Shown here piece by piece: positions 1-57,338 of a stretch of 64,000 bases of DNA. Within the stretch, counting starts at the first letter, position 1; every line of letters begins with the position of its first letter. A model generated the notes under the pieces. The model saw only the letters and a program-made list of their open reading frames with translations. It made no database searches and was not told the DNA's origin. This DNA comes from Dictyostelium discoideum (lineage: Eukaryota). The position numbers were made by a program, and so were the translations under genes. The stretch lies in assembly GCA_000004695.1 (NCBI GenBank), contig CM000150.2, positions 2,016,001-2,080,000 of the forward strand. Reading direction: 5' to 3'.

Positions 1-102
1 TTATTATTATTATTTAAATGTGGGTCAACTATAATTAGTGTCTTAGTTCACTTATTTAATATTAACTTATTTTTGTGTCTTCGTTACATAAAAAAAAAAA
101 TG

Positions 103-134
<32 letters not shown>

Positions 135-924
135 AAAAAAAAAATAAAAAAAAAAAGAAAAATAAAAAAAAAAAGAAAAATAAAAAATAAAAAAAAAAAT
201 AAAAAAAATAAAAAAAAAATAAAAAAAAAAGAGGGTACCCCCCCCTAAAAAAAATAATAATTTTAATAATAATAATAATAATAATAAAAATGAAAATTAA
301 TATTTAAATAAAAAAAAGAGGGTACCCCCCTAAAAAATGTTGGAATTTAATTAAATTTATTTTTTATTTTTTTTATTTTTTAATTTTATTTTTTTTATTT
401 TTTAATTTAAAAAATGTTGATATAAAACAAAAAAATTTTTTCAAAAAAAACATTTCAAATTATTTTTAACAAATTATATTATTATACTTTAATGTATGTG
501 TACAATTTTAAAAATTTAAAATTTGTTCTATTTTTATCAATCATATCATGTATATTTATTAATTAAATCTCATATATTCTTATTCCCAGCAAATGACATC
601 AGGTGGAATCGTACAACCAGGCCAAAATCTCTCACAACGTCCAATAAACGGCCAATATGGCTGGGGACCAGCAGCAGGAAGTGCCGCAAATCCACGTGGC
701 GATCTCCGTGGTTACACTTACAATATTAGATAGTTTCGCTGTCTATTTCTGAATATTCAGAAATCTTTGTTTAATGCCAAAAATAGTAGATATCTATTAT
801 ATTTTCTCATTTTATAAATCTGATAAGATCTGTCTTAAATAAAAAAAATCAAATTTTTTTATAAATTAAAAAAAATCATTTCCGCAAATCCGCAAAAAAT
901 AGCGGGAATTAAATTATTTATTGT

Positions 925-1015
925 TTTTTAAATTGTTTTTTTTGCGTGATATGAAATGAACAGCAAATGAACAACGTGTGAGTTGTATTAGCTGATGGTA
1001 ATATTTATTTATTTT
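925..1015 (+). repeat. dispersed repeat; second inverted copy at ~46875-46965
   Basis: About 90 nt ('ttattgtttttta..gaaatgaacagcaaatgaacaacgtgtgagttgta..ctgatgg') is roughly 85% identical to the reverse complement of 46875-46965. The flanking sequences are unrelated. Confidence 0.5.
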
Positions 1016-1062
1016 TGTTTAATTAAAAAATTTTTTATAAAATAAAAAAAAAAAAAAATTTT

Positions 1063-1114
1063 AGTGAATTTTTACACTACGCATAAACAGTGTATTTTAG
1101 TGTAAAAATTCACT
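1063..1114. repeat. perfect 17-bp inverted repeat (hairpin or TIR-like) with an 18-nt spacer
   Basis: 1063-1079 'agtgaatttttacacta' is the exact reverse complement of 1098-1114 'tagtgtaaaaattcact'. It lies in non-AT-rich DNA beside the dispersed repeat at 925-1015. Confidence 0.55.
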
Positions 1115-1134
1115 GCCGTTTAGAAAGCGAAATT

Positions 1135-1584
1135 TCAAAAAAAATTCCCTACAACACACCTATCTATGGGTGGTATGACTTTTAATATGGTTACTTCAGC
1201 ATTTTCGAAATTAATATTTGAAATCATTTGATAGTAAAACGTTAGACAATTTGAATAGGTTTGATTGTTTATGATTTTCAAAACCGATGTATCAAAGTAA
1301 ACAATATCATACTCTGACGATGACAAAGCATTACATAAATCATTAGCTTCCACAGCCAATAGGTATTTTTGTAAAGTTTCAAACTGATCATTAGCAAATG
1401 GAAACTTTGAGTACATATCCTTTAGGAGAGCATTAGCTACAGTGGAATCAGTAGGTTCACCGAAAAATCCAACCTTTTGACCAATAAGGATTTCTTTTCT
1501 TTCATATGACTCTTTAATTCTATTTAAAATTGTTGTTTTTCCAGAACCAATTGGACCTGTAGTAATTTTAATCTTAGGAGGCAT
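1135..1584 (-). CDS. P-loop nucleoside/nucleotide-kinase-like protein (deoxynucleoside-kinase-like), 149 aa, possibly a truncated remnant
   Basis: A real ATG begins 'MPPKIKITTGPIGSGKTT' (Walker A). Further in there are 'GFFGEPTDS' (E-P) and 'YFDTSV' (ERS-like) motifs in the order seen in dNK/TK-type kinases. Codon usage is not typical of the host (CCT, GCT, TCG, CTA, ACG, GGG). Confidence 0.45.
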   Translation of the reverse strand: MPPKIKITTGPIGSGKTTILNRIKESYERKEILIGQKVGFFGEPTDSTVANALLKDMYSKFPFANDQFETLQKYLLAVEANDLCNALSSSEYDIVYFDTSVLKIINNQTYSNCLTFYYQMISNINFENAEVTILKVIPPIDRCVVGNFF

Positions 1585-1891
1585 TTTTTTTTTTCTTTTT
1601 TATTTATTTTTAGATATTATCTTGTTTTATTTTTTTTAAAAAAAAATAATAATTTATATCCATTTTTAAAAAAAACAAAAAAGCTTCCATGGTGTTCTTT
1701 TTTTTAAAAAAAGAATTCTATTAAAGAATAGTTATAAAAATAAAAAAAAAAAAAAAATAAGGGAAGAAAAAAAAAAAATCTTGGTTTTGATTTTCAAAAA
1801 AAAAAAAAAAAAAAAAAAAAAATTAAAAATTATAAAAAAAAAAAAAAAAAATATCTTCTTTTTTTTTAAAAAAAAAAAATAAAGAATAAAA

Positions 1892-2811
1892 ATGAACATT
1901 CATGTAAAATCAGTTTGTATTGATAATGGCATCATAATTTTTAAAAAACAAGATCAGGCATTTAATTATATGAATAGTGTCAGCTCTATTGAAAAATATT
2001 TTATATTTTCATATGAATTTGGCGATAAAGGTCAACGTGCTTTTTTAGTATCTCCAAGTATTGAAAAACTCTTCAAATGTATAATGAATACACCATTGAA
2101 TCTTCGTCATTATTATGAATTGATTCCACAATTTGAAAATTGTAATTTGTATTTAGATATTGATTTTAAGTTATCACCCGAGAAAGCAGAAGAAAATAAA
2201 AGAAACAAACAACTTTATAAAAACAATCTTATCGATAGAATTATAATCGACGAAGTAAAACCCATCCAAAGAAAACACATCCACAGGTCTCTGATGAAAT
2301 CGATAGCATTGAACCATTATTGCTCTTCTCCTATCAATACGATAAATATTCTTTACATTTACATTGGCCATTGAAAACCTTCCATTGGAAAGACAATGAA
2401 CATCTTGGAGAATGGGTAAAACAATTTGTTATTGAAAGATCCATCTATATACCAGAGCTCAACTATATCGATACGTCAGTTTATTCAAAATTCAGAAATT
2501 TTCGTCTAATGGGAAATAAAAAATTCAGTAAGAGTATTGAAACAATACTTAGAACAACATCTAAAGATAAAACCCTTGAAACCTTTGAAAAAACTATAAT
2601 AACATCATCGAATTTTCAAAAACAAAACGATACTGGTATCGATGAGAAAATCCTTTCATCTAATGGTTTCGAATCTTTAAAGAATACTGGTAGATCAACA
2701 GTTGATGTTAAGAGGAATCAACACCAACGAATTTCTTGTAATGATTTGATTTCATTGGAAGGTATGGGTCTCTCATTGGACGAATGTAATGATATTATAT
2801 TTTGTTTTTAA
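1892..2811 (+). pseudogene. archaeo-eukaryotic primase (AEP)-like gene split by a frameshift into two overlapping ORFs
   Basis: ORF 1892-2374 carries motif I 'NLYLDIDFK' (DxD). ORF 2320-2811, in a different frame, carries motif II-like 'YSLHLHWPL' (HxH) and motif III-like 'IDTSVYSKFRNFRLMGNKKFSK' (D..R..R..G..K). The frames overlap at 2239-2374, which is too short for an intron, so this is a frameshift. Confidence 0.35.
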
Positions 2812-3078
2812 TTTTTATAGAAGATTTTTTCAATTAAAATTCTATAAAAATAAAAAACAAAATAAAAAAAATAAATTTTATAAAAAAAAAAAAATGTTTG
2901 AAAATATAAAATCATTAATCTTCTCAGCAGTTTCTTTATTATTCTCTTTTTTGTATTATCATAGTGATTCAATTATATCTTTATTCACTCAAAATCTTGG
3001 TGAGGCAGTTTTGGAAACAATAGACGAAGTAATTCATAAACCCCAAACCTCATTACAACAAGAATCATTAAAATTACA

Positions 3079-3411
3079 ATGTACATGCAAACCATTATAA
3101 AACAATCGAAAAGTATCGATGAAGATTTGGTACAAGGAACTAAAAAATGGGAAGAAGTAAGAGAGAAGTATTCTTTTACTGGAAGTAGATTAGCTGCTGC
3201 CATTGGAATTGATCCATACACTTCACAACATGATTTATTTCATTTTTTATATACAATTGTTGGAATGTGCATTCATGATAAATATAATTTTGAAGATTTG
3301 TTCCAAAGAGTAGGCAGTGGCACATCATTTGCTGTTATCGAAGAATTCATGAGGGGTGATCTTTTTCCTGATATCAAAAATGGATGTAGTGAAGAATGTA
3401 AAAAAAAATGA
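3079..3411 (+). pseudogene. YqaJ/lambda-exonuclease-like nuclease, truncated N-terminal fragment
   Basis: 'QGTKKWEEVREKYSFTGSRLAAAIGIDPYTSQHDL' is about 95% identical to the N-terminus of the complete YqaJ-like ORF at 53694-54407. Nucleotide homology spans 3038-3237 only, after which the ORF diverges into unrelated sequence. Confidence 0.5.
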
Positions 3412-3849
3412 TACAATATACACAGGCCGTGTTTAAAAACTATATGAACTCTGTATGTTGGTACATAATGATGTTAATATACCAAAAAAGTTTGATGATA
3501 ATGGGCCCTCGTGCTTTTCAAATTATATCCATTCTTTGGTAGGTGGTTTCAAGGAAGAAAACTCTTGTTATTTCAACTATACGCCACGTCTCGAAAATAA
3601 TAGTAGTAAATTTCCAGATTATCCAAAAGAAAATTCTCAATAAAAATAAAAAGTTTATAATTTTTTTATTTATTTTGTTAATTTTTGTTTTTATTTTAAA
3701 TAAATAAATAATTTTAATAAATAATAATTAAAAAAAAAAAAATCATTGAAATCTAGTTGTAATTTTTATTTTATTTTATTTTTTTCTTTAAATTATTTTT
3801 CTTTAATCATTTTTATTTTGAATAATGATCTGAGACTACACGGGAAAAA

Positions 3850-4500
3850 AACCTAGTAAAATGTTAAAATATAATTAATTAAATTAAATTTTAATAAAAG
3901 TTTGTAATGCTATTTATAAATTAATAAAAATTATTAAAAAATAAGATTGATAGTTGCAAAAAAATAAAAAAAATAAAATTTATAAAAAAAAGAAACTTAT
4001 TATAAAAAAAAAATAGCATTTTTTATTAAAATTTAATTAATACTATAAAATAAGAAAATATATTAGAATTTTTAAATTTTATTAATTCGGGGTTATTTTT
4101 TTTTTTTAAAAATAATTATAATAATTATTAGAAAATAGGATATTTTATAAAAAAATAAGATTATTTATAAAAAATGTAACCTTTATTATTTTTTAATAAA
4201 ATATATTTAAAAAATAAGATAAATAATAATAAAAAAAAAATAATAAAATATATTAAAAATTGAAACATTATATAATTTTTAACATATTTTATTAAAATGT
4301 AATAAATACTAAAAAAATGAGATATTATATAAGAAGGTTATAAATTTTATTAATTATGGTTTTAATAATAAGATGTTTAAAAAATAATAATATAAATTAT
4401 AAATTGGAAAATTTTATAATATTCAACATATTTTATTAAATATAAGTAAAAAATAAGATAAAAAATAAATTTTATAAAAAAAAAAAATATATATATATTA
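3850..4500. repeat. degenerate tandem/subterminal-like AT-rich repeats
   Basis: Recurring ~100-130-bp units share 'aacatattttattaaa(a)t.taa' and 'aaaataagat(a/t)' motifs (for example 3930-3960, 4150-4230, 4265-4330, 4420-4470). Confidence 0.3.
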
Positions 4501-5479
4501 AATGAAACTTTTTATTATTTTAAAAAATATAGGAATTGAATTAATAAAAATAAGATATTATAAGAATAAATATGCGAAAACAAGAAAAATTTTATTAATT
4601 TTGAATTTGGTTTTTTTTTTATTTTTTTATTTTTTTTTTTTTTTTATCCATTTTCAAACTAAATCTGAATCGATTGTTTTTTTTTTTTTTTTTTTTTTTT
4701 TATCTGGATAAAAGTTGTTTGTATTTATTTAAAAAATTATTTGATTTTACTTTTTTTTTTTTTTTTTCATATTTTTTTTTTTTCATCATTTTTTTTTCAT
4801 TTTTTTTTCACCTTTTTTTTTACCAAAGTAAGTAAATTTTCATTATTTGTTTGAATAAAATCAGTAAACTAATTATTAAATTAGAATAAATAAAATTGAT
4901 GAAACAACTTATAAAAAAAAAAATAAAAATAATAAAAAAAAAAAAATAAAAAAAATTTAGAAAAATTAAAAAATATGTTTATTTTAAATATTCTTTATAT
5001 AGTATAATGTTTTAATTAATATCTTTTGGTATTATATGTCAACACATTTCATAGTATAAAATGAAAAAGAAAATTTATTTTCAGTTTTATTATCTTATTA
5101 CTCACAAATATAAATATGTTATAAATTAAATAAATATATAAATATATATTAATTAAAAGAAATAGATATTTAATTAAATTATATATAATTAAATAGAAAT
5201 AAAAATTAAATTGGTTATTCAAAAAATAAATAAAAAAAAATAGAATATAATAAAAAATAATTCTTTTAAGTCCTTCTATAGTATACCACTTCCTTTGCAT
5301 ATTTAAAACAAATAACCTCTTTAAAATTAAAATTCATATATTGAAATTCTTAAATTGTAATTTTAAATATTTGTTTAATGGATAACCGTAATAAATCTAT
5401 TTTCTATTAATTTTTAATTATTCTTTCAAAAAATAAAAAATTATAATTTTTTTATATTTTTTTTTTCAATTGGAAATTT

Positions 5480-5804
5480 TTTTTTTTTTGAATTGGATAA
5501 CGCAATTATTATTTGCTTCTCCTTGAGATGCTAGATCTCATTTTATTTTTTTTTTTTTTTTACAGGGTCTTTTTGATTAAAACATCTTTTTTGTCCAAAC
5601 TTTTTTCTAAATCTTTTTTTATTTTATCGTCTGGTTCGTGATTGATGTTTATGACGTATTTGAATTGTTTTTTTTTTTTTAATTGAGTTTTATCCACAAT
5701 TTCGCTTATTTTTTGTAGGCATTTGTGTTGCTTAATATTTGTGGTGTTGTTTGTGATTTTCATTTTATTTTCTTTCTATCTTTTTTATTTTACTGATTAA
5801 CTTG

Positions 5805-5862
<58 letters not shown>

Positions 5863-7300
5863 TTATAGAAAGTACTGAGTGAATTTATTGTATTTTCTGA
5901 GATGTTTAGGAAGTTCTATTGCGGGTGTTGATGATGATTTGTGACACCCCTTGTCCTGTTTTATCAATTGGTGCGTGGTGTGTTATTTTGTTTTTATATT
6001 GTTGATTTATTGAGTAAATTTTATTTGTTTTTATATTTGTTTCAGTTAGAAGTGCTGCGTCCAGCTTGTTGTTGTCTAAAACGGTGTTTATTATGCTGGC
6101 AGATTGGATGGTGTTGGATCCTTGGACGTTCCAAACACCTATTCTTATTGTGTTTTTCTTTATAGTTTTATTTGGGGTAGATTTTTATCTACCTTTTGAA
6201 GTTTCTGGTTTATTTTGTCTTCTAACTGATCTTTACTTTGTTCGTTGTGTTGTTGGTCTTGTGTGTTTGTGGGGTTTTTTGATTTATTGATTTGTTTTAG
6301 AATTTCCTTGTTGAAGTTGTCTATATCTTCATCCATTTTTGTTTTTATGCTTTTTTGTCCATATTCACCCAATTTTGGTTTGACTGGTGTTTTGTTGGTC
6401 TTGTTTGTTTTGTCTTGTTGTTTCTTTTTTGGTGTGTTTAACAATTTACTTGGTGAATCGATAATTTTCGATGGTGTACCATAGGTTGGGCTGAAACTCA
6501 TGATATGTTTTATTGGAGAGGAGAAGAACCATTGATTTGAAGGGATTGAAAGTGGGAATTCTATTTTTCTTATTGCATCAGTGTTTGGGCTGGTGAAGTC
6601 GAAGATATCATTTGCCTCTCTAAGTTTTTCTTCCGTTGTTAGTCCCTTTGTTTCGCCGTGTTGTTTTATTGGTGTATTGTATGGAGATGGTGGTTCGATA
6701 GGTTTTTCTGATTTTGTTTTAATTTCTTGATTGTTTATCGATTGTGTATTGATCTCATTCTCTATTCTTGTTAGTTCATCTACGTTTTCTAGTGATGCTT
6801 CTATTACCTTTTGAGCTGTATCATCTAGGGCCATAAATGTTTTATCATTAGATGAGGATGTGATTGGTGGGATAATGATTGTTCTTTTTCCTTGTTTTGG
6901 TATTTGTTCTGATGTAGATTGTGGTTGTTGTTCATCTGATTGTTTTTTATTTTTGTTTTCTTCTTGATTTTCTGGTAATGAGGTTTGATCTCTCCATCCT
7001 TTGTTGGAGTGTCCAATTAATGTTAGATTGTCTAGTTCAATGATAGTGTCAAATTCTTCTACGACTCTTTTCACTGTTTTGATAATTAGAGTTTCGCCTT
7101 TAATTTCTGATTTAATTAGTTTACATCCTTCATTTTCTATTACCCATTCTATTTCTGTGAGTGATTTATACCAATCAAAATCTGTATACATATTTTTTGG
7201 TCTTATAGTGGTTATAAATTGTCCTTTTAATTCTGCATCAAACATATTTACAAAATAGATTACTGTTTTCAATTGGAAATTTTTTTGCATATAATATTTT
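5480..7300 (-). mobile_element. TRE5-like non-LTR retrotransposon, internally deleted, head-to-head with tRNA-Arg
   Basis: On the minus strand there is a 376-aa ORF1 (7290-6160) followed by the start of an ORF2 AP-endonuclease ('IGVWNVQGSNTIQSASIINTVLDNNKLDAALLTETN', 6150-6040). It is then truncated, has an internal A-tract (5860-5810), and ends in a 3' module plus oligo(A) at 5550-5480. That 3' module matches the 3' end of the element at 49140-49205. Confidence 0.5.
6160..7290 (-). CDS. retrotransposon ORF1 protein (TRE5-like)
   Basis: 376-aa ORF from an ATG 21 bp from the tRNA-Arg 5' end, followed immediately by the APE-domain start of ORF2. Confidence 0.45.
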   Translation of the reverse strand: MQKNFQLKTVIYFVNMFDAELKGQFITTIRPKNMYTDFDWYKSLTEIEWVIENEGCKLIKSEIKGETLIIKTVKRVVEEFDTIIELDNLTLIGHSNKGWRDQTSLPENQEENKNKKQSDEQQPQSTSEQIPKQGKRTIIIPPITSSSNDKTFMALDDTAQKVIEASLENVDELTRIENEINTQSINNQEIKTKSEKPIEPPSPYNTPIKQHGETKGLTTEEKLREANDIFDFTSPNTDAIRKIEFPLSIPSNQWFFSSPIKHIMSFSPTYGTPSKIIDSPSKLLNTPKKKQQDKTNKTNKTPVKPKLGEYGQKSIKTKMDEDIDNFNKEILKQINKSKNPTNTQDQQHNEQSKDQLEDKINQKLQKVDKNLPQIKL

Positions 7301-7311
7301 ATATCATCAAA

Positions 7312-7385
7312 GGGACTATAGTTTAGTTGGATATAACGACCGGCTACGAACCGGTAGGTCTCAGGTTCGACCCCTGATGGTCTCG
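7312..7385 (+). tRNA. tRNA-Arg (anticodon ACG)
   Basis: Manual cloverleaf: acceptor GGGACTA/TGGTCTC with two G-U pairs, anticodon stem ACCGG/CCGGT with loop CTACGAA, T-arm TCAGG-TTCGACC-CCTGA, discriminator G. The architecture closely matches metazoan tRNA-Arg-ACG. Confidence 0.85.
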
Positions 7386-7417
7386 TATACTTTTAATATA
7401 ATCAAGATTAAGTCAAT

Positions 7418-7428
7418 GGTTCGAATCT
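7418..7428 (+). promoter_or_regulatory. external B-box (exB) downstream of the tRNA gene
   Basis: 'GGTTCGAATCT' sits 33 bp downstream of the tRNA 3' end. Dictyostelium tRNA genes commonly carry an extragenic B box 20-40 bp downstream. Confidence 0.45.
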
Positions 7429-7543
7429 CGTTTAATTCAAATCAGATTAAAATAAAATTTGATTTTGTAATAAAAAAGAAATTTTGAAAAAATAATTTTA
7501 AAGAAATAAAATTTAAAAAAATGAATTACTTTTATTATTTTTT

Positions 7544-8644
7544 TTAGTTTTCGAATCTAACCTTTTCACATTTATATGATTTATTACATAATTGATCGAA
7601 ACCACAATTAAAACTATGAGTACATTTACCATATTCACAACGGTCAGTTGTACAATCCAAATTATCGGAACAGTCTTTATTTGAATAACATGAGGAAAGA
7701 CCATCACAAGTTGGATCAGGTTTATAATGACAGCCATATTCATTATCACAAAAGTCCTGAGTACATGGATTACCATCATCACAACTAACATTGTTATGTA
7801 TACAACCCAAATCATTATCACATACATCAGCGGTACATAAATTTCCATCTGAACAATCTTTATAACTTTGGATACATTTTAGGGTTTGTTTATCACAAAC
7901 TGCATTTGTACATTTATTGGTGTTACAACCTTTTAGACATTTCTGATATTCAGTAGTGTTTTCACAATTCATCCATTCATTAACAATATTAATACAAATT
8001 CCATAATAGGGTGAATAAAAATCAGTGGTACAAGGATTATTATCGGAACAATTGACACAAAATCCACGTTCGTCACAAATCTCCTCTGGTTTACATTTGG
8101 GTGTAATTTTACATTCACCAGTCTCTTCATTGCATGATGCAATACTACAACGATCACCACTAATACATGTTGGTGTATAAATACATTGACCAGTGTTTAC
8201 ATCACACAATGCTTGTTCACATAAAGTTCTTGCATGACATCTTGGTGTAACCGTACAATTTCCACCCTGTCTTCTATTACATGTTACAGTTTCACATAAA
8301 TCTTTTGCTTGACATTTTTGTAAATGTTCACATCTTAATATTTTAAATCTATCAATTGTACATGGATCACCATCATCACATAATCCTTCTATTTCACCTA
8401 AATAATAATAAATATATATATATTTTTTTTTTATTTTTAAAAAAAATTAATTAATATTTTTTTAAAATTACAAAAATCATTTTATAAAATTATAAATAAT
8501 AAAATAATAAAATAATAAAAAAAAAAAAAAAAAAAAAATGTTGATTTTTATTATTATTTTTTTTTAATATATTGGAAATAAATATTTACAATTAACAAAT
8601 ACTAAAAATATTGTAATAAATAAAAGTAAATATTTTATTTTCAT
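7544..8644 (-). CDS. secreted cysteine-rich protein with Dictyostelium-type (CTDC/EcmA-like) Cys repeats
   Basis: Model join(8644..8590,8397..7544). Exon 1 encodes the signal peptide MKIKYLLLFITIFLVFVN plus 1 nt. It has a GTAAAT donor and a 192-nt AT-rich intron with acceptor ..tattag. The phase-1 junction rebuilds TGT (Cys). Exon 2 carries repeated 'D(G/N)NPCTxDxC' motifs and 50 or more cysteines. The ORF track shows only the 221 aa downstream of an internal start. Confidence 0.55.
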
Positions 8645-47442: not shown

Positions 47443-48546
47443 TATAAATAAACTATTGTAGTATACAATTAGTATGTTATTTTTATTTATTTATTTTAGG
47501 TTTTTTAGTTTTTGTGAATTTAAAATAGTATGTTATTTTAGATTAGGTAATTAATAATTAATTGGTGGTGTAATTGTTGGAATTGGTTCATTAGTGTTTA
47601 TGCTCCATTCTTTTTTAAATTTTTTGATGGTTTCGGACCATTGGGTTTCTTTTTGAGTTTTTGTGAGGTTGTTTTTAATTGAGTATTGGTTAAAGTTTGA
47701 TAAAGTTCTTGAATATTCCAATCTTATTAGCTTGTGCCATTTTGATTTTAATATATCATAATCTAGTGTTGTGTTGTTTATTTGGTTGTTCCAATTATCA
47801 ATTGATTGAGTTATATTGATGTCAAATAATGATTTGCATAACCATATCCATATTTGGTGAATAACTAATGAGATTATGTTCCAATATGCATGTGTTCTGA
47901 CTAGATCAAGATTTGTGTTTATATAATTCCAGTTGGACCTGTATTTTTTATATTGTGCGTTTTCTGCAAAATGAAAATTAATATTGATAGTTGGATCTGG
48001 TTTAAATGCTTTGTTGTTTGTTTGTGGTTTATAGATGAGTGTGTATAATTTTGTTGTTTGGTTTTTTGTTAGTGACCAGTTTTTGTTTCCATTGCAATTT
48101 TTATATATAAAATATTTTAATTTGTCGTGGTTTATGAAGTTGATTGTGTGCTGACAATTGAAAAACAAATGACCATAGGGATCATTTTTCATTTCATTGT
48201 TGCAAATGGGGCAAACTTTGTTGTGTAGATGATTAATCGGAAGACATCTAGCATGGAATCTTTGCATTGTATCACGGCCTTTTGGATCTTTTAATTTTTG
48301 AATATTGACAAAAAGTTGGTCGTATGTGTATTTCCATAATAGTTGTATTGATTGTTGGTGCGAAGTAAGAAGTAGATCTGAATATTTCTTGCCAATATAG
48401 TCTTTTGATTTGCATTGGTGATTGTTTAGTATTGTCGAGTAGATTTCTTTGAGTGTTGGTGGTAGTGGAATATTATTTGTGTTTAATGTTTGAGAGGGTT
48501 GGTTTTTTGTTAATATTGGTTGTAGGATTTGAACTTTATCTTTTAG
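47443..48546 (-). mobile_element. TRE3-like non-LTR retrotransposon, 5'-truncated copy, downstream of tRNA-Val(AAC)
   Basis: An open frame covers 48540-47551 and the ORF track reports the part from the first ATG (47551-48267, 238 aa). It is the C-terminus of an ORF2 ('..CPICNNEM..H..C' zinc-finger, 'THAYWNIISLVIHQIWIWLCK'). It is more than 95% identical to 55718-56845. The 3' UTR ends '..caatagtttatttatatc' plus an oligo(A) tail, seen as plus-strand T25 at 47418-47442. The truncated 5' end lies about 65 bp downstream of the tRNA 3' end, in the same orientation. Confidence 0.6.
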
Positions 48547-48610: not shown

Positions 48611-48684
48611 TATTCAGAGCGGGAATCGAACCCACGACCTAATCCGTGTTAAGGATTCGTGATAACCGACTACACCATCCGAAC
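48611..48684 (-). tRNA. tRNA-Val (anticodon AAC)
   Basis: Manual fold of the minus strand: acceptor GTTCGGA/TCTGAAT with two G-U pairs, anticodon stem AATCC/GGATT with loop TTAACAC, T-arm GTGGG-TTCGATT-CCCGC, discriminator A. Confidence 0.7.
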
Positions 48685-51639: not shown

Positions 51640-52130
51640 TAAAATTACTTGGATCTTTTGAAAGAGTTAGTTTTAAGTCTTTTGCTTTTTATATATTCTG
51701 GGCTGGCTAGTTTGAACCATTAAGTAAGGTCGAGTATGAAAGCTTTTCAACTTTCGACGGTTCATCTCTGTACAATTGGTCGCAGACCCAAGTCCAGATG
51801 TTGTGAGATATTAGTGCGATTATGTTTCTATATGCGAAGGATTTAGATAGGTCATAGTTTACACATTTATACCCCCATTCGAAGTATTCTTTATGGAACA
51901 CACCTTGCAAACTTGGGATATGAAAAGTTACAGAACTCTAACTACCAAAAGGAGAGCCCTTTAGCTGATGTATTTAATGATGTCTATTCACTCCACACCA
52001 TCTAAGGTTTGCATTGGTTACCTTTTTGTGTAAAGAAGATGCACATTCATAAGGTTATTACGGAAAACAGCATCTATCCACTTCAATATGAACAAAATGC
52101 GAATGGTGAAGGTGATACCGATGATGATGA
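51640..52130 (-). mobile_element. fragment of a second non-LTR retrotransposon family (ORF2 C-terminus plus 3' region)
   Basis: Non-AT-rich block. The ORF 51707-51910 'FAYRNIIALISHNIWTWVCDQLY' is homologous to the 'HAYWNIISLVIHQIWIWLCKSLF' segment of the TRE3-like ORF2, at roughly 50% identity. Confidence 0.4.
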
Positions 52131-52279
52131 CGATGAGGAGATGTTACATGATGAAGAATATAATAATTTTTAATTTTTTAAAAAATTAAAAAGGGGAAAA
52201 AAAAAATAATAAAAAAAAAAAAATAAAACCTTAATTGGTTTTGTTTATGTAATAATCTTTTAAAAAATATATTCTATTA

Positions 52280-52627
52280 TTATTTTTCTTCTTCTTTTGT
52301 TGGAATATCTGTTCTTTTTCGAGAACCAGGAAAATTAAGATCCAAAATATTGACTGTAAAGAGATCTTGAATATTTTTGTCTTGAACTAAATAATCCTCA
52401 CCACTTTGGTAGTGTAATACATCTCTGAATTGAAAAAGAGGTAAGGAACCATCTTCGTTAACTTTGAGTGATTGATAAAGTATTGATGCAGTTTTATACA
52501 TTTCAAGACTTTCTACTACTTCCTTGATACATTCTGCTGTACAATCTTTCCCAAATTCAAATTCCAATAAGTTATCATATTGAAAAAGTTTTTCAGTAAA
52601 ATCTGGGTGGTGGTGGTTACGGTTCAT
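52280..52627 (-). CDS. hypothetical protein, 115 aa
   Basis: ORF with a real ATG (MNRNHHHPDFTEKLFQYDNLLEFEFGKDCTAECIKEVVESLEMYK..). Codon usage is mixed and there is no confident family. Confidence 0.3.
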   Translation of the reverse strand: MNRNHHHPDFTEKLFQYDNLLEFEFGKDCTAECIKEVVESLEMYKTASILYQSLKVNEDGSLPLFQFRDVLHYQSGEDYLVQDKNIQDLFTVNILDLNFPGSRKRTDIPTKEEEK

Positions 52628-53167
52628 TTTTTTTTTCTCTGTGTCAAAAATGAAAATTATTTGTGTGAATAAAAAATAAAAAAAAAAAAAAAAAATTTTA
52701 AAAAAAAAAAAAATAAATAAAAAAAATAATAAAATAATAACAATGACAACTTAATTTTTTGAGTGAGAAATTATAAATAAATAATAAATAAATTTGTAAA
52801 TTAAAAAAAAAAAATAATAAATAAAAAAATTATTTTTTAATTTTTACCTAATTTACACAAAAACATTAATGTTTTTCTCACCATTTTATCTTTGTATAAA
52901 TTTTTTTTATTTTTTTATTTTATTATATTATACTTCATATAAATAACTATCTCCAAATGAAATTTTTATTAAAAATTAATTTATTGATCTTTTTTTTTTG
53001 TGAATTCCTGTAACTCACATCACTATGTTGGTATTATCGATGACAATTCTATAACTCCAAACATGCAATGGTTTAACGATATTATGTTCATTAGAAGAAA
53101 CGCCAATGGTGCCTGGCCTAGAGTTAATTCTTTTAATTGAAACGGGGTATACTTTGTTTTCGGGAAT

Positions 53168-53746
53168 ATGGCTCCTCATGGATTGACCTTGCTGTATATA
53201 GGTAAAGCATCCCATCAAGATGGGATGGGTTTGTACCACAGAGGTTACTCAGATATAGTTGGTCGCCCAAGGTTTTGGGGGACTCCAAATGCAAGACCAC
53301 TAGAAATGGCAAATGCCCAAATTTTAATGTATTATAGAGGTTTTGATGGTCCAGTTGCTGGTCATGCTGAGTGGTTCCTTTCAGTATTTGGGTGCCCAGA
53401 AAATAGTTTCAACGAGGGTGGTTTAAAGGAATCTCAATTTTGTTATGGTGCAGGTCAATGGAATTTTTTCCATGCAACTGCTCCCGCAGTTAATGTTTGC
53501 CAATATATTATAAATCAAGATCCATCCCCTGGTCTTTTTTTTAGATATCCAAACTATCCATCTGCTCCAAGTATTATAAGAAGAATTGTTGATTGTGAAA
53601 CTGAACGATTACTCGCTGAAGGTCTTTCACTTCAAGTTCCTGGTCTTCAAAATCAAGTGTTAAATCTTCAAAATCAAGTGGAAAATCTTCAAAATGCAAA
53701 CCAACTATTTGCAAACCCCAAACTTCATTACAACAAGAATCATTAA
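53168..53746 (+). CDS. GC-richer ORF of unknown function, 192 aa, next to the YqaJ-like gene; weak support
   Basis: ORF MAPHGLTLLYIGKASHQDGMGLYHRGYSDIVGRPRFWGTPNARPLEMANAQILMYYRGFDGPVAGHAEWF... ending in a Q/N-rich coiled-coil-like tail. Non-host codon usage (GGG, CGC, CCC, CTG). A 39-codon open segment upstream (53021-53137) is separated by one stop codon. Confidence 0.3.
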   Translation: MAPHGLTLLYIGKASHQDGMGLYHRGYSDIVGRPRFWGTPNARPLEMANAQILMYYRGFDGPVAGHAEWFLSVFGCPENSFNEGGLKESQFCYGAGQWNFFHATAPAVNVCQYIINQDPSPGLFFRYPNYPSAPSIIRRIVDCETERLLAEGLSLQVPGLQNQVLNLQNQVENLQNANQLFANPKLHYNKNH

Positions 53747-54407
53747 AATTACAATGTACATGCAAACCATTATAAAACAATCGAAAAGTATCGATGAAGA
53801 TTTGGTACAAGGAACTAAAAAATGGGAAGAAGCAAGAGAGAAGTATTCTTTAACTGGAAGTAGATTAGCTGCTGCAATTGGAATTGATCCATACACTTCA
53901 CAACATGATTTAAAATTAATATTAGCGAAAAAGAAAACCCCATTCTTTAGTGACTACTGTAAAAAGGCAATGGAACATGGTAAACACCAAGAACCAATAG
54001 CAAGAGAATTTTATTTTAATGAATTGGAGACTTCAATTATCGAAAAGGGTATCTTTCCATTGCCAGGCGACAAAAGAATTGGATGTTCTCCTGATGGGGT
54101 AATTTACACAACAGTACCTGGTAAAGATGGAGTTTTACAGCGTGAAGGAGTTATTGAAATAAAATGTCCACTATCTACCACGAACTTCAGTGGCCTAAAG
54201 AATGGTAGAAAACCTGATGCCTTAGCTAATGCTCAGAAAATACCTCTAGATTACATTCCACAAATATTTGCAAACATGGCATGTACTGGGGCACAATGGT
54301 GTGATTATATATGTTGGGTTCCAGGTGAGGTATACTTTTGTAGAAGGGTATTCTTTGATACAAATGTATTCGTTAGCAAAATTATTTATAGATACACCTT
54401 TAAATGA
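53694..54407 (+). CDS. YqaJ/lambda-exonuclease-like PD-(D/E)XK nuclease, complete; about 216 aa if started at the second Met (53754)
   Basis: 'WEEAREKYSLTGSRLAAAIGIDPYTSQHDL', 'HGKHQEPIAREFY', 'GCSPDGVIY', 'GVIEIKCP' and 'IPLDYIPQIFANMACTGAQWCDYICW' match the YqaJ viral-recombination nuclease domain in order and spacing. Non-host codon usage. Confidence 0.6.
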   Translation: MQTNYLQTPNFITTRIIKITMYMQTIIKQSKSIDEDLVQGTKKWEEAREKYSLTGSRLAAAIGIDPYTSQHDLKLILAKKKTPFFSDYCKKAMEHGKHQEPIAREFYFNELETSIIEKGIFPLPGDKRIGCSPDGVIYTTVPGKDGVLQREGVIEIKCPLSTTNFSGLKNGRKPDALANAQKIPLDYIPQIFANMACTGAQWCDYICWVPGEVYFCRRVFFDTNVFVSKIIYRYTFK

Positions 54408-54544
54408 AATACCTTAAAGAATGAAAAAACATTAATAATAAATACATTACTCTTACAGAAACTTAAAGTTTTAAATCCACACCTAAATATTCATGTACGA
54501 ACTAAATTATCATATAGAAAAAAAGTTATAAAAAAAAATAATAA

Positions 54545-55560
54545 AAAATTTCGTTGATTGGTGGGGTGTTAATGTTGTTTTTTGGTGGTTGATTGTTTTT
54601 GTTAATATTTAGGGTTTGTGAGAGCATTTTTTATAGTTGTTGCCATATCAGAATTTTTTGCATGTTGAATTTTGTGTTTAGTGACACTACGTGTTGCAGC
54701 TTTGATATATCTTGTGATACCAGATGGTTGTTCGATCTTTTGGTCTACAATGTTGTGTGTGTGATCAATTAGATGATATGTTATAATGTAGCTTTTAAAC
54801 GCAACAGCATATGAGTATGTGACAGTAAATGATTCAATTGATGTACAACTGGTGAATTTGGTGAGGTTGTTTATAATTGCATCATTTGCAAGTTTGGGTG
54901 AGTACGTTTGAATGAATGTTTTAATGATTGCATAATCATTTGATGATATTTCGAATCTATAGTTGAGTTTGTCGATATTTAGTGCAAGTTGGTTTTGAAG
55001 GTTGATTATTGAAGTTAATTTATCAACGTTGCAATTTACGAAGGCAGTTGCACTAATTATTTTAAATGCTGATGGCGACAGTATATCTTCGAAGAGTTTG
55101 TGAATGTTTTTGTGAATTTGTTGGATTCTTGTGTCATCTTTAGAGGCTAATTCTTCACGGATGTATGGTTGATTAAAGTAACACTTAATGTTGATGGTGT
55201 TATTGTTTTTTTCTAAGAAGGAGAGTGGTCTTGTGATTGATGGAGGTGCAATGATATCTAATTGATTATCAAGTCCTTTGTTAAGTGAGAATTTGTTTGT
55301 TGGGGTTTGTTTTTTAGGTGTGCCGATTTTTGCACTTTTGTTTTTTGTTGTTCAGGTTGTGGAGGTATTATTTGTATTGGTTGTGTCGTTATCTGTATGA
55401 TTTGACTGTAATTCAGTTGAGTGATCATCAGCCATTGTTGAAAAGTATATAGGACGATAGCCCTTGCTTTACTGAGCAAAAATAGGGTAAAATTAAGAGG
55501 AATGAATGTGGTGAAGACATAGCAGTGATTTATTTTTATATGAATAAATTCTTGTTTATT
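54545..55560 (-). mobile_element. TRE3-like element, 5' portion (5' UTR plus ORF1 start), in tandem downstream of the TRE3 copy at 55608-57235
   Basis: Minus-strand 5' UTR, then ATG at 55440 ('MADDHSTELQSNHTDN..'), and a GT-rich (plus) or CA-rich (minus) ORF1 with frameshifts, truncated at about 54545. Confidence 0.4.
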
Positions 55561-55607: not shown

Positions 55608-57235
55608 TGATATAAAAAAACTATTGTAGTATACAATTAGTATGTTTTTTTATTTATTTATTTTAGGTTTTTTAGTTTTTGTTAATTTAAAATGGTATGT
55701 TATTTTAGATTAGGTAATTAATAATTAATTGGTGGTGTAATTGTTGGAATTGGTTCATTTGTGTTTATGCTCCATTCTTTTTTAAATTTTTTGATGGTTT
55801 CGGACCATTGGGTTTCTTTTTGAGTTTTTGTGAGGTTGTTTTTAATTGAGTATTGGTTAAAGTTTGATAATGTTCTTGAATATTCCAATCTTATTAGCTT
55901 GTGCCATTTTGATTTTAATATATCATAATCTAGTGTTGTGTTGTTTATTTGGTTGTTCCAATTGTCAATTGATTGAGTTATATTGATGTCAAATAATGAT
56001 TTGCATAACCAGATCCATATTTGGTGAATAACTAATGAGATTATGTTCCAATATGCATGTGTTCTGACTAGATCAAGATTTGTGTTTATATAATTCCAGT
56101 TGGACCTGTATTTTTTATATTGTGCGTTTTCTGCAAAATGAAAATTAATATTGATAGTTGGATCTGGTTTAAATACTTTGTTGTTTGTTTGTGGTTTATA
56201 AATGTGTGTGTATAATTTTGTTGTTTGGTTTTTTGTTAGTGACCAGTTTTTGTTTCCATTGCAATTTTTATATATAAAATATTTTAATTTGTCGTGGTTT
56301 ATGAAGTTGATTGTGTGCTGACAATTGAAAAACAAATGACCATAGGGATCATTATTCATTTCATTGTTGCAAATGGGGCAAACTTTGTTGTGTAGATGAT
56401 TAATCGGAAGACATCTAGCATGGAATCTTTGCATTGTATCACGGCCTTTTGGATCTTTTAATTTTTGAATTTTGACAAAAAGTTGGTCGTATGTGTATTT
56501 CCATAATAGTTGTATTGATTGTTGGTGCGAAGTAAGAAGTAGATCTGAATATTTCTTGCCAATATAGTCTTTTGATTTACATTGGTGATTGTTGAGTATT
56601 GTCGAGTAGATTTCTTTGAGTGTTGGTGGTAGTGGAATATTATTTGTGGTTAATGTTTGAGAGGTTTGATTTTTTATTAATATTGGTTGTAGGATTTGAA
56701 CTTTATCTTTTAGATGTCCAATTTGAGTTGCATAGTTTTCCCATTCTTTTTTGATTTTTATAAGGTATGGAGAAGAGATTGATTTGTTGATGATTTGATC
56801 CATCCAACTTATCATGTATATTGAATTATTTGCAGATTTATGCATTTGTAAAAAACTGTATTTTTACAAATGCATAAATCTGTTGTATATCCAAATCTTT
56901 TGAGCAACTTGTCGTAATTGTATATTCCACATACCCCAACCACCTTCTTTTAATGGTTTTAATGATCTATCATAACACATCAAAGGTATTTTTGCACGTG
57001 AATGGATGGTTGATGTGTTATTTTCAATGGAATTGATATTGAGAGTTGGTGATTCAGAATTTGCGGGAGAATTCATAAACCATGAGATTAATTTATTAAT
57101 TTGAATTTCTTCATCTTTTGTAAATTCTTCAAGGTATGATAAATATGTTATTGGTGATAGTGAGTAGGTGTTTATGATGGTTGTTTTTGTTTTTAATGTT
57201 GTGCCACTAGTTTTCCATAGTACTATTATATATTA
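55608..57235 (-). mobile_element. TRE3-like non-LTR retrotransposon, 5'-truncated copy, downstream of tRNA-Val(UAC)
   Basis: ORF2 C-terminal 375-aa ORF (55718-56845), near-identical to 47551-48267 including the CCHC finger. It shares the 3' terminus 'gatataaa..aactattgtagtatacaattagtatg', with no long A-tail. The 5' end lies about 30-40 bp from the tRNA 3' end. Confidence 0.6.
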
Positions 57236-57264: not shown

Positions 57265-57338
57265 TGATCCGACCGAGGATCGAACTCGAGACCTGTTGCG
57301 TGTAAAGCAACCGTGATAACCGACTACACCATCCGACC
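57265..57338 (-). tRNA. tRNA-Val (anticodon UAC); one acceptor-stem mismatch
   Basis: Minus strand GGTCGGATGGTGTAGTCGGTTATCACGGTTGCTTTACACGCAACAGGTCTCGAGTTCGATCCTCGGTCGGATCA. Anticodon stem GTTGC/GCAAC with loop TTTACAC. The D-arm and 5' half are identical to tRNA-Val(AAC). There is a G5:G68 mispair in the acceptor stem. Confidence 0.6.

Follow-up and report, generated by a model that had tools for sequence, protein, structure and literature searches.

Our analysis of a 64 kb window of the Dictyostelium discoideum genome (64 000 nucleotides of contig CM000150.2 in assembly GCA_000004695.1, positions 2 016 001 to 2 080 000; positions below are counted within this whole stretch unless another locus is named) indicates that the feature at 1892–2811 is very probably a defunct copy of a viral PrimPol gene. 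The region around it, at about 1153–3697, was recognized from gene order and similarity as a decayed fragment of a dNK(−)/PrimPol(+)/YqaJ(+) module, and the same module in Dictyostelium cf. discoideum was found, by the same kind of comparison, to be part of a multi-copy unit that also carries virus-type genes. A more far-reaching reading, to which we give a probability of roughly 0.4, sees in the pseudogene the fossil of a ~39 kb mriyavirus-like family, undescribed and possibly still active, that infects and integrates into dictyostelids and has near-identical intact copies in wild D. cf. discoideum. The window is extremely AT-rich and contains the usual Dictyostelium genes (actin, poly-N/Q proteins); taken alone the feature is an ordinary pseudogene, and its interest lies in the parent element.

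An earlier note on this DNA had described a primase-like gene of the AEP superfamily split by a frameshift, with motif I in the frame at 1892–2374 and motifs II and III in an overlapping frame, and this is the arrangement that was found. The upstream open reading frame (ORF) at 1892–2374 encodes 160 amino acids (aa) and carries motif I (DxD) as LYLDIDF at 2147–2167. Three-frame translation revealed a second frame, −1 relative to the first and open at 2239–2811, with motif II (SxH) as YSLHLHW at 2347–2367 and motif III as IDTSVYSKFRNFRLMGNKK at 2467–2523, which includes YIDTSVY. All three motifs are in the expected order, but they are divided between two frames. The note had estimated about 45 residues between motifs I and II, where we measured ~65, and about 35 between motifs II and III, where we measured ~38; its repaired protein of 320 aa is in fact 306 aa and truncated, as full-length family members have 398 aa.

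Searched against the PDB, the joined 306-aa protein matched human PrimPol (5L2X/7JK1) and nothing else (E=2.2e-11), in one alignment that spans the frame junction. PrimPol was also the sole match of the N-terminal part alone (E=6.6e-8) and of the C-terminal part alone (E=0.009). A protein search recovered an intact homologue, P0001, from D. cf. discoideum, which has 398 aa, is 97% identical to the window gene and matches the same human structures at E=1.5e-12; homologues in Dictyostelium dimigraforme have ~395 aa. The Pfam model AEP_C962R scored the window gene at 16.2 bits, under its cut-off of 23, so that the family assignment rests on the PDB sequence matches and on fold matches, and a PHROGs search with the primase returned nothing useful. 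Fold was assessed on intact P0001 rather than on the window copy. Its AlphaFold model, built from a 47-sequence alignment, had a predicted local distance difference test (pLDDT) score of 82.3, and Foldseek placed human PrimPol on top (E ~2e-15; template modelling score, by target, 0.70–0.75), followed by herpes simplex virus UL52, monkeypox virus E5/vaccinia virus D5 and the PrimPol of African swine fever virus (ASFV). Among the viral models of BFVD it adjoined primases of pithovirus, ASFV and mimivirids, all nucleocytoplasmic large DNA viruses (NCLDV). The note was correct in its AEP assignment and in suggesting a compact viral, herpes-pox or PrimPol-like type.

Residue conservation points the same way. 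In the 47-sequence family alignment K152, S154, H156, D194, R205 and K211 were invariant and D89, C336, H343, C363 and C368 nearly so, and the motif residues of the window gene fall in the columns of D89, S154, H156 and D194. The window gene shares with the PrimPol clade the motifs DxD, SxH and hD..Y..R.FR and the typical N-terminal F..Q..AF / G.GQR.FLV region, and the intact copies also share the C-terminal UL52-type C-H-C-C zinc finger, whereas the window copy is frameshifted and lacks it. Unlike the helicase-fused D5, C962R and F1055L, intact members of the family are stand-alone proteins of just 398 aa. An exhaustive HMMER search collected 356 relatives of this PrimPol, and identity between the window gene and cellular PrimPols of several eukaryotes was 25–33%. 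By these comparisons the window gene belongs to the PrimPol clade of AEP proteins; no second PrimPol copy was found in the window by tblastn.

The frameshift stems from one G that is missing after base 2256, as seen in a DNA alignment with two intact copies, which read GAC GAA GTG AAA ACC CAT CTA where the window reads GAC GAA GT- AAA ACC CAT CCA. Intact homologues have one continuous frame and no frameshift. A second lesion has removed 272 bp (L001 10908–11179, in D. cf. discoideum), in place of which stands a 22-nt AT-rich filler; with it have gone residues ~303–393, including the zinc finger, which reads HCKISQRIH...CTDEEC in intact copies. The window copy cannot make PrimPol and is a pseudogene, an option that the earlier note had listed and that the 1-nt deletion, the deletion of the zinc-finger region and the truncated neighbouring genes uphold. 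The features of this locus are as follows.

1153–1584, minus strand: dNK-like gene relic keeping about the N-terminal 145 of 263 residues; homology ends at ~1153–1156 (ORF 1135–1584)
1585–1891, unstranded: divergent intergenic region between dNK and PrimPol, within the 92.7% blastn block and conserved with L001, L002 and L004
1892–2256, plus strand: 5' segment of the PrimPol pseudogene, residues 1–122, with motif I
2256–2257, plus strand: frameshift site, one G missing
2257–2797, plus strand: 3' segment of the PrimPol pseudogene in the −1 frame, residues 123–302, with motifs II and III
2798–2819, plus strand: 22-nt AT-rich filler replacing 272 bp; the stop codon used is at 2809–2811
2820–3237, plus strand: last PrimPol codons, downstream sequence and start of YqaJ, 98.6% identical to L001 11180–11595
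3234–3697, plus strand: relic of a 126-aa Cys-motif gene, 96.8% identical to L006 4460–4927; frameshifted, with tblastn matches over two frames

The blastn block joins window 1156–2797 to L001 9222–10907 at 92.7% identity. By tblastn the dNK relic is 82–83% identical to the intact 263-aa dNK over 137 aa. The YqaJ relic comprises the first ~53 codons from the ATG at 3079 (66 aa aligned from 3040), its homology breaking at 3237, and is recognized by Pfam YqaJ (E=7.9e-5); a 68-aa membrane-like ORF lies at 2894–3100.

Two other accounts of the split gene were weighed against decay. It is barely credible that the organism has an unbroken gene and that the AX4 reference shows a frameshift through an error in sequencing or assembly. 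A single-base difference is of typical error size and the reading frame is otherwise clean, but locus L023 of GCA_054883475.1, a D. discoideum assembly that was independently produced and may or may not share the AX4 strain, is 99.54% identical to window 1–7833 and has the identical GAAGTAAAACCC at the lesion. With the same deletion in an independent assembly it is no AX4 sequencing error, an option that the earlier note had listed; moreover, the missing G adjoins an A run rather than having been lost from inside a homopolymer, 272 bp of coding sequence are also gone and both neighbouring genes are truncated. It is highly improbable that programmed −1 frameshifting, also raised by the note, or a tiny intron at 2255–2286 joins the frames into a functional primase that dispenses with the zinc finger. 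The downstream frame is indeed −1, and the note's statement that the overlap has no splice signals does not hold, as a GT..AG interval of 32 nt there (2255–2286, 59% A+T) restores the frame. One other such interval, of 20 nt, would also restore an open frame, and there is no third; the 32-nt interval is used as an intron in an automated gene model of the L023 assembly (P0019). Against this, the overlap at 2236–2374 contains no slippery heptamer of the form X XXY YYZ and no long homopolymer, the 32-nt interval would cut out 11 codons that intact homologues translate in their single frame, and the joined product would still be devoid of a zinc finger that is nearly invariant in the family. Introns of Dictyostelium are far longer than 32 nt and near 90% A+T, and the interval is unlike them in both respects.

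The upstream ORF is identical to the AX4 gene DDB_G0269072 (UniProt Q55EV5, automatically named 'DNA-directed primase/polymerase protein'). Its database entry presents a small intact hypothetical protein, whereas its last 38 residues are out-of-frame read-through past the deletion and the part with motifs II and III is unannotated there; the entry is a mis-modelled 160-aa protein and calls for re-annotation. Automated models in new Dictyostelium assemblies were also seen to be forced or chimeric (P0016, P0186 and P0019; at L004, in the L005/L006 region and at L023), among them a 676-aa PrimPol-YqaJ fusion, a 390-aa product joining a capsid N-terminus to a coiled-coil protein, and the 32-nt 'intron' that masks the frameshift. 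Protein clusters built on such models mix unrelated families.

The parent element was traced in D. cf. discoideum, where loci L001 and L002, 580 kb apart on one contig, share 99.7% identity across 14.9 kb, and where one assembly has at least eight gene models of the family. To map it, the helicase and capsid proteins served to walk outward and the loci were then stitched with blastn; the resulting map closes on itself at ~38.8 kb. The gene order on this map, with the domain matches of the proteins, is as follows.

Positions 1–3: capsid-like protein (414 aa; Capsid_N 23.6–23.9 bits, cut-off 24, E=3.5e-5, about 4e-5), a 129-aa protein and a 773-aa protein
Position 4: several small Cys-motif and GIY-like secreted proteins
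Positions 5–7: dNK kinase (minus strand; Pfam dNK E=2.5e-11), PrimPol (plus strand) and YqaJ nuclease (plus strand; Pfam E=4.4e-37)
Positions 8–10: a 566-aa protein, a 443-aa protein and a ~232-aa beta-rich protein that is a penton candidate (194 aa in Acytostelium)
Positions 11–13: GRF zinc ribbon protein (Pfam E=3.8e-10), superfamily 3 (SF3) helicase of D5/VapE type (DUF5906 E=3.2e-15 and a VapE-like domain E=5e-5) and a coiled-coil protein
Positions 14–16: A32 packaging ATPase (Pox_A32 27.7 bits, gathering cut-off 22.8), a membrane protein and an HUH-like 187-aa protein
Positions 17–19: a Gly-rich membrane protein, a RuvC-like 190-aa protein and a fibre-like repeat protein
Positions 20–21: a ~1-kb iteron array and VLTF3 (Pox_VLTF3 25.0 bits, equal to the cut-off of 25 and marginal, E=1.7e-5)

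Several of these assignments were examined further. A three-lineage profile of the capsid candidate gave two major capsid proteins of NCLDV as its top two PDB matches, which are weak (E 0.077 and 0.31) and fall on the C-terminal jelly-roll motif; an IMG/VR scan, which detects close relatives only, found none of the capsid protein. The 190-aa RuvC-like protein, which starts IIGIDPGIVNFAY, has the Schizosaccharomyces pombe resolvase Ydc2 (1KCF) as its best PDB match, a weak one (E=0.18), and no Pfam match. The 187-aa HUH-like protein contains FHLTINTN, RVHSHTLIE and DYIKK, all kept in its Acytostelium homologue (43% identity); its sole family match is to Gemini_AL1, again weak (E=0.048), and it has no PDB sequence match. 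No AEP motifs were seen by eye in the N-terminal 330 residues of the SF3 helicase. Pfam scans of the ORFs of the ~39-kb map were negative for DNA polymerase, RNA polymerase, integrase and protease; the rve and reverse transcriptase genes of L005 and L023 are those of long terminal repeat retrotransposons alongside the element.

The iteron array is a non-coding stretch of ~1 kb at L006 15346–16414 (also L005 14132–14581), in which an 11-bp unit, TCACTATAGCA, occurs in ~88 copies, direct and inverted, within 45-bp super-repeats. It sits between genes for proteins of 164 and 476 aa and may act as a replication origin or as a packaging signal; the repeat is absent from the window. The small proteins at position 4 comprise a GIY...YIG-like family, with a signal-peptide-like N-terminus followed by the motif (e.g. 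PGIYVIFSI...LVYIGKS), and a family with a C-x-x-E-C-K-x-K motif, neither of which has a Pfam match. Loci of the GIY-like and Cys-motif families are L002 7752–8450, L005 690–1724 and 3475–4881, L006 3707–4033 and window 52973–53716.

In the AX4 genome, on the 8.48-Mb chromosome and outside the window, gene DDB_G0277467 (P0185, 314 aa) is 85% identical to 37% of the capsid-like protein, and this capsid fragment indicates that AX4 has further element relics elsewhere. Literature searches found no published description of the element, of DDB_G0269072 or of DDB_G0277467, and the element is probably an undescribed, giant-virus-related endogenous virus of social amoebae.

Support for an old, virus-linked module comes from more distant lineages. 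The nearest relatives outside the family, as found by HMMER, share the dNK(−)/PrimPol(+)/YqaJ(+) arrangement. A 12.6-kb Logan contig from run ERR13950607 has the same module plus a VLTF3 that is 41% identical to that of the element (Pox_VLTF3 20.1 bits). On a 25.9-kb contig of Acytostelium subglobosum lie a capsid protein 37% identical over 415 aa (E=1e-87), an A32 ATPase 52% identical (Pox_A32 39.1 bits, cut-off 22.8) and HUH-like, RuvC-like and other element proteins. As judged from shared genes and their order, diverged syntenic versions of the element are present in D. dimigraforme, A. subglobosum and run ERR13950607.

It is very unlikely that the window gene is a decayed duplicate of the host's cellular PrimPol with no link to a virus. 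Dictyostelids do have what appears, from its sequence and surroundings, to be a cellular PrimPol distinct from the virus-borne family: DLAC_05493 of Tieghemostelium lacteum (L026 10001–11311) encodes a 436-aa PrimPol with Pfam Herpes_UL52, its neighbours are ordinary host genes (PRMT, G-patch, CLU), and the 25–33% identity of the window gene to cellular PrimPols could be taken to favour such a source. However, the T. lacteum gene, in its host context, is just 28% identical to the window gene, which marks the dictyostelid cellular PrimPol as a different gene. Cellular PrimPols occupy a single host locus, whereas intact copies 97% identical to the window gene sit in a repeated unit beside dNK and YqaJ, linked to the capsid protein, A32 ATPase and VLTF3, and the dNK-PrimPol-YqaJ order recurs with viral genes in Acytostelium and the Logan contig. 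The idea that the 'Dictyostelium PrimPol orthologue' of the literature is the viral relic was dropped, as T. lacteum has a distinct PrimPol in host context.

The gene content and size of the element agree with what is published on Mriyaviricetes, a class that includes Yaravirus and the Pleurochrysis endemic viruses and in which one member infects Acanthamoeba (PMC11253617). Mriyavirus genomes span 35–45 kb and are often circular or terminally redundant. Their genes include those for a capsid protein, an ATPase, RuvC, a PDDEXK nuclease, a helicase of SF3 or SF2 type and an HUH endonuclease, as well as VLTF3, which is said to be diagnostic of Nucleocytoviricota; DNA and RNA polymerases are missing, and replication is probably nuclear (PMC11253617). 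An HUH endonuclease is marked by motifs I, II (HUH) and III (Yx2-3K). The element shares with mriyaviruses a map of ~39 kb that appears circular or permuted, an A32 ATPase, VLTF3 (at a marginal score), a PDDEXK-fold nuclease and an SF3 helicase whose N-terminus is not of AEP type, together with candidates for an NCLDV-type capsid protein, a RuvC-like protein and an HUH-like protein. DNA polymerase, RNA polymerase and integrase all went undetected in it, and an amoebozoan host is shared with one mriyavirus. It differs in several ways. Its nuclease is a bona fide YqaJ, whereas the mriyavirus PDDEXK protein is not orthologous to YqaJ (PMC11253617); it has a separate, apparently active PrimPol with a zinc finger, whereas primase domains are described as degraded or replaced in most mriyaviruses; it adds a dNK kinase and a GRF protein; and it is integrated in multiple copies in host chromosomes. 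A 2026 preprint notes that mriyaviruses are devoid of integration genes (bioRxiv 10.64898/2026.06.19.733378). A 2026 survey of endogenous double-stranded DNA viruses reported mriyavirus-like regions in algae and did not mention amoebozoans. We infer that the unit represents the genome, in circular or circularly permuted form, of a ~39-kb DNA virus, that this virus is Mriyaviricetes-like and akin to the small Nucleocytoviricota, and that it would replicate in the nucleus without a polymerase of its own; membership of Mriyaviricetes is put forward as a hypothesis from gene content.

The most substantial competing view, which we consider unlikely though deserving of attention, is that the element is real but of another kind, either a polinton-like virus or Maverick, or a piece of a larger integrated giant virus. 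Polinton-like viruses, starting at 15 kb, are described as grading continuously into mriyaviruses, VLTF3 and HUH being found here and there among the groups (bioRxiv 10.64898/2026.06.19.733378), and polintons are reported in other dictyostelids, namely Dictyostelium fasciculatum and Polysphondylium pallidum (PMC3671162, PMC4642659). Like polintons and polinton-like viruses, the element is an integrated, multi-copy, capsid-encoding DNA element of a protist with an A32-type ATPase, and some polinton-like viruses have primase-SF3 helicase replication modules. PrimPol-like genes also occur in 16 IMG/VR giant-virus contigs. In contrast to polintons, the element has VLTF3 and is larger than is typical of them, and Pfam scans of the ORFs of the ~39-kb map detected no protein-primed PolB, rve (retroviral-type) integrase, tyrosine recombinase or adenoviral-type protease. 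The stitched map closes at ~39 kb instead of running on into more viral genes, and its combination of VLTF3, RuvC-like and HUH-like proteins and SF3 helicase with neither a DNA nor an RNA polymerase is the one published as the signature of mriyaviruses.

A number of observations weigh against the overall account of a decayed PrimPol gene from a mriyavirus-like element. The ~39-kb map was pieced together from three loci on two contigs, and the arrangement varies between copies (L001/L002 compared with L004), L003 being a deletion derivative. The Pfam scores of the capsid protein and VLTF3 are at or just below curated cut-offs, the Acytostelium capsid homologue has no Pfam match, and the AlphaFold model of the capsid protein, made from three close sequences, was unusable (pLDDT 36). 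The assignments of the putative RuvC and HUH proteins are weak. The viral PrimPol is 22–30% identical to its own viral orthologues and 25–33% to cellular PrimPols, and with distances so similar its ultimate origin may be host to virus or virus to host. The 9 synonymous and 9 non-synonymous differences between window and intact copy over 302 codons do not show long neutral decay. No integrase was found that could account for entry of the element into chromosomes. The virus classification is one of gene content, not phylogeny, and the element is known here from genome sequence.

The genes of the element suggest how it may work. In a live element the stand-alone 398-aa PrimPol, with AEP domain and zinc finger, would prime or re-prime for host DNA polymerases as the partner of an SF3 helicase that itself has no recognizable AEP motifs. 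The HUH-like protein and the iteron array may provide an origin-nicking step, and roles in recombination, in resolving concatemers and in supplying nucleotides could fall to YqaJ, the RuvC-like protein and dNK. The insertion in laboratory D. discoideum would have decayed through point deletion, internal deletion and rearrangement, leaving the window gene inert.

To our knowledge, no virus is known for D. discoideum, a main model amoeba. The proposed element, if real, would be the first virus lineage tied to this model system, and it would add social amoebae to the hosts of the recently defined small relatives of giant viruses. A seemingly functional PrimPol, as read from the intact genes, alongside an HUH protein and an SF3 helicase would also bear on the replication of viruses that have no polymerase. 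Copies in a wild relative that are 99.7% identical, a complete complement of genes for virion and replication, and syntenic relatives in distant dictyostelids make the question of a Dictyostelium virus directly testable.

The window contains further traces of the same element family, as follows.

51880–54549, unstranded: second relic cluster of the same element family (blastn and tblastn)
51880–52092, plus strand: fragment of the 186-aa family
52289–52651, minus strand: 116-aa Cys-motif gene
52973–53716, plus strand: GIY-like secreted-protein gene
53715–54518, plus strand: nearly complete YqaJ gene (ORF 53694–54407; 91.6% identity by tblastn)

The first three genes of this cluster are 54–61% identical to element proteins (tblastn). 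The 200-bp start of YqaJ at 3038–3237 is repeated with 98% identity at 53713–53912, ~50 kb away, and this exact overlap of the two relic clusters suggests a rearrangement or two partial insertions. A 52-nt hairpin at 1063–1114 (within 1004–1156) adjoins the cut-off point of dNK, and 1004–1156 has an inverted copy, 90% identical, ~1.3 kb upstream in the wider locus (L023 2654–2808); these may be ends of a small transposon or the scar of a rearrangement that truncated the kinase gene.

Separate from the element, near-identical ORFs (MQRFHARCLPINHL...) were observed at 47551–48267 and 55718–56845, 340–420 bp from tRNA-Val genes (48611–48684 and 57265–57338), and these two ORFs resemble, and may be, fragments of tRNA-targeted Dictyostelium retrotransposons. 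A tRNA-Arg gene lies at 7312–7385.

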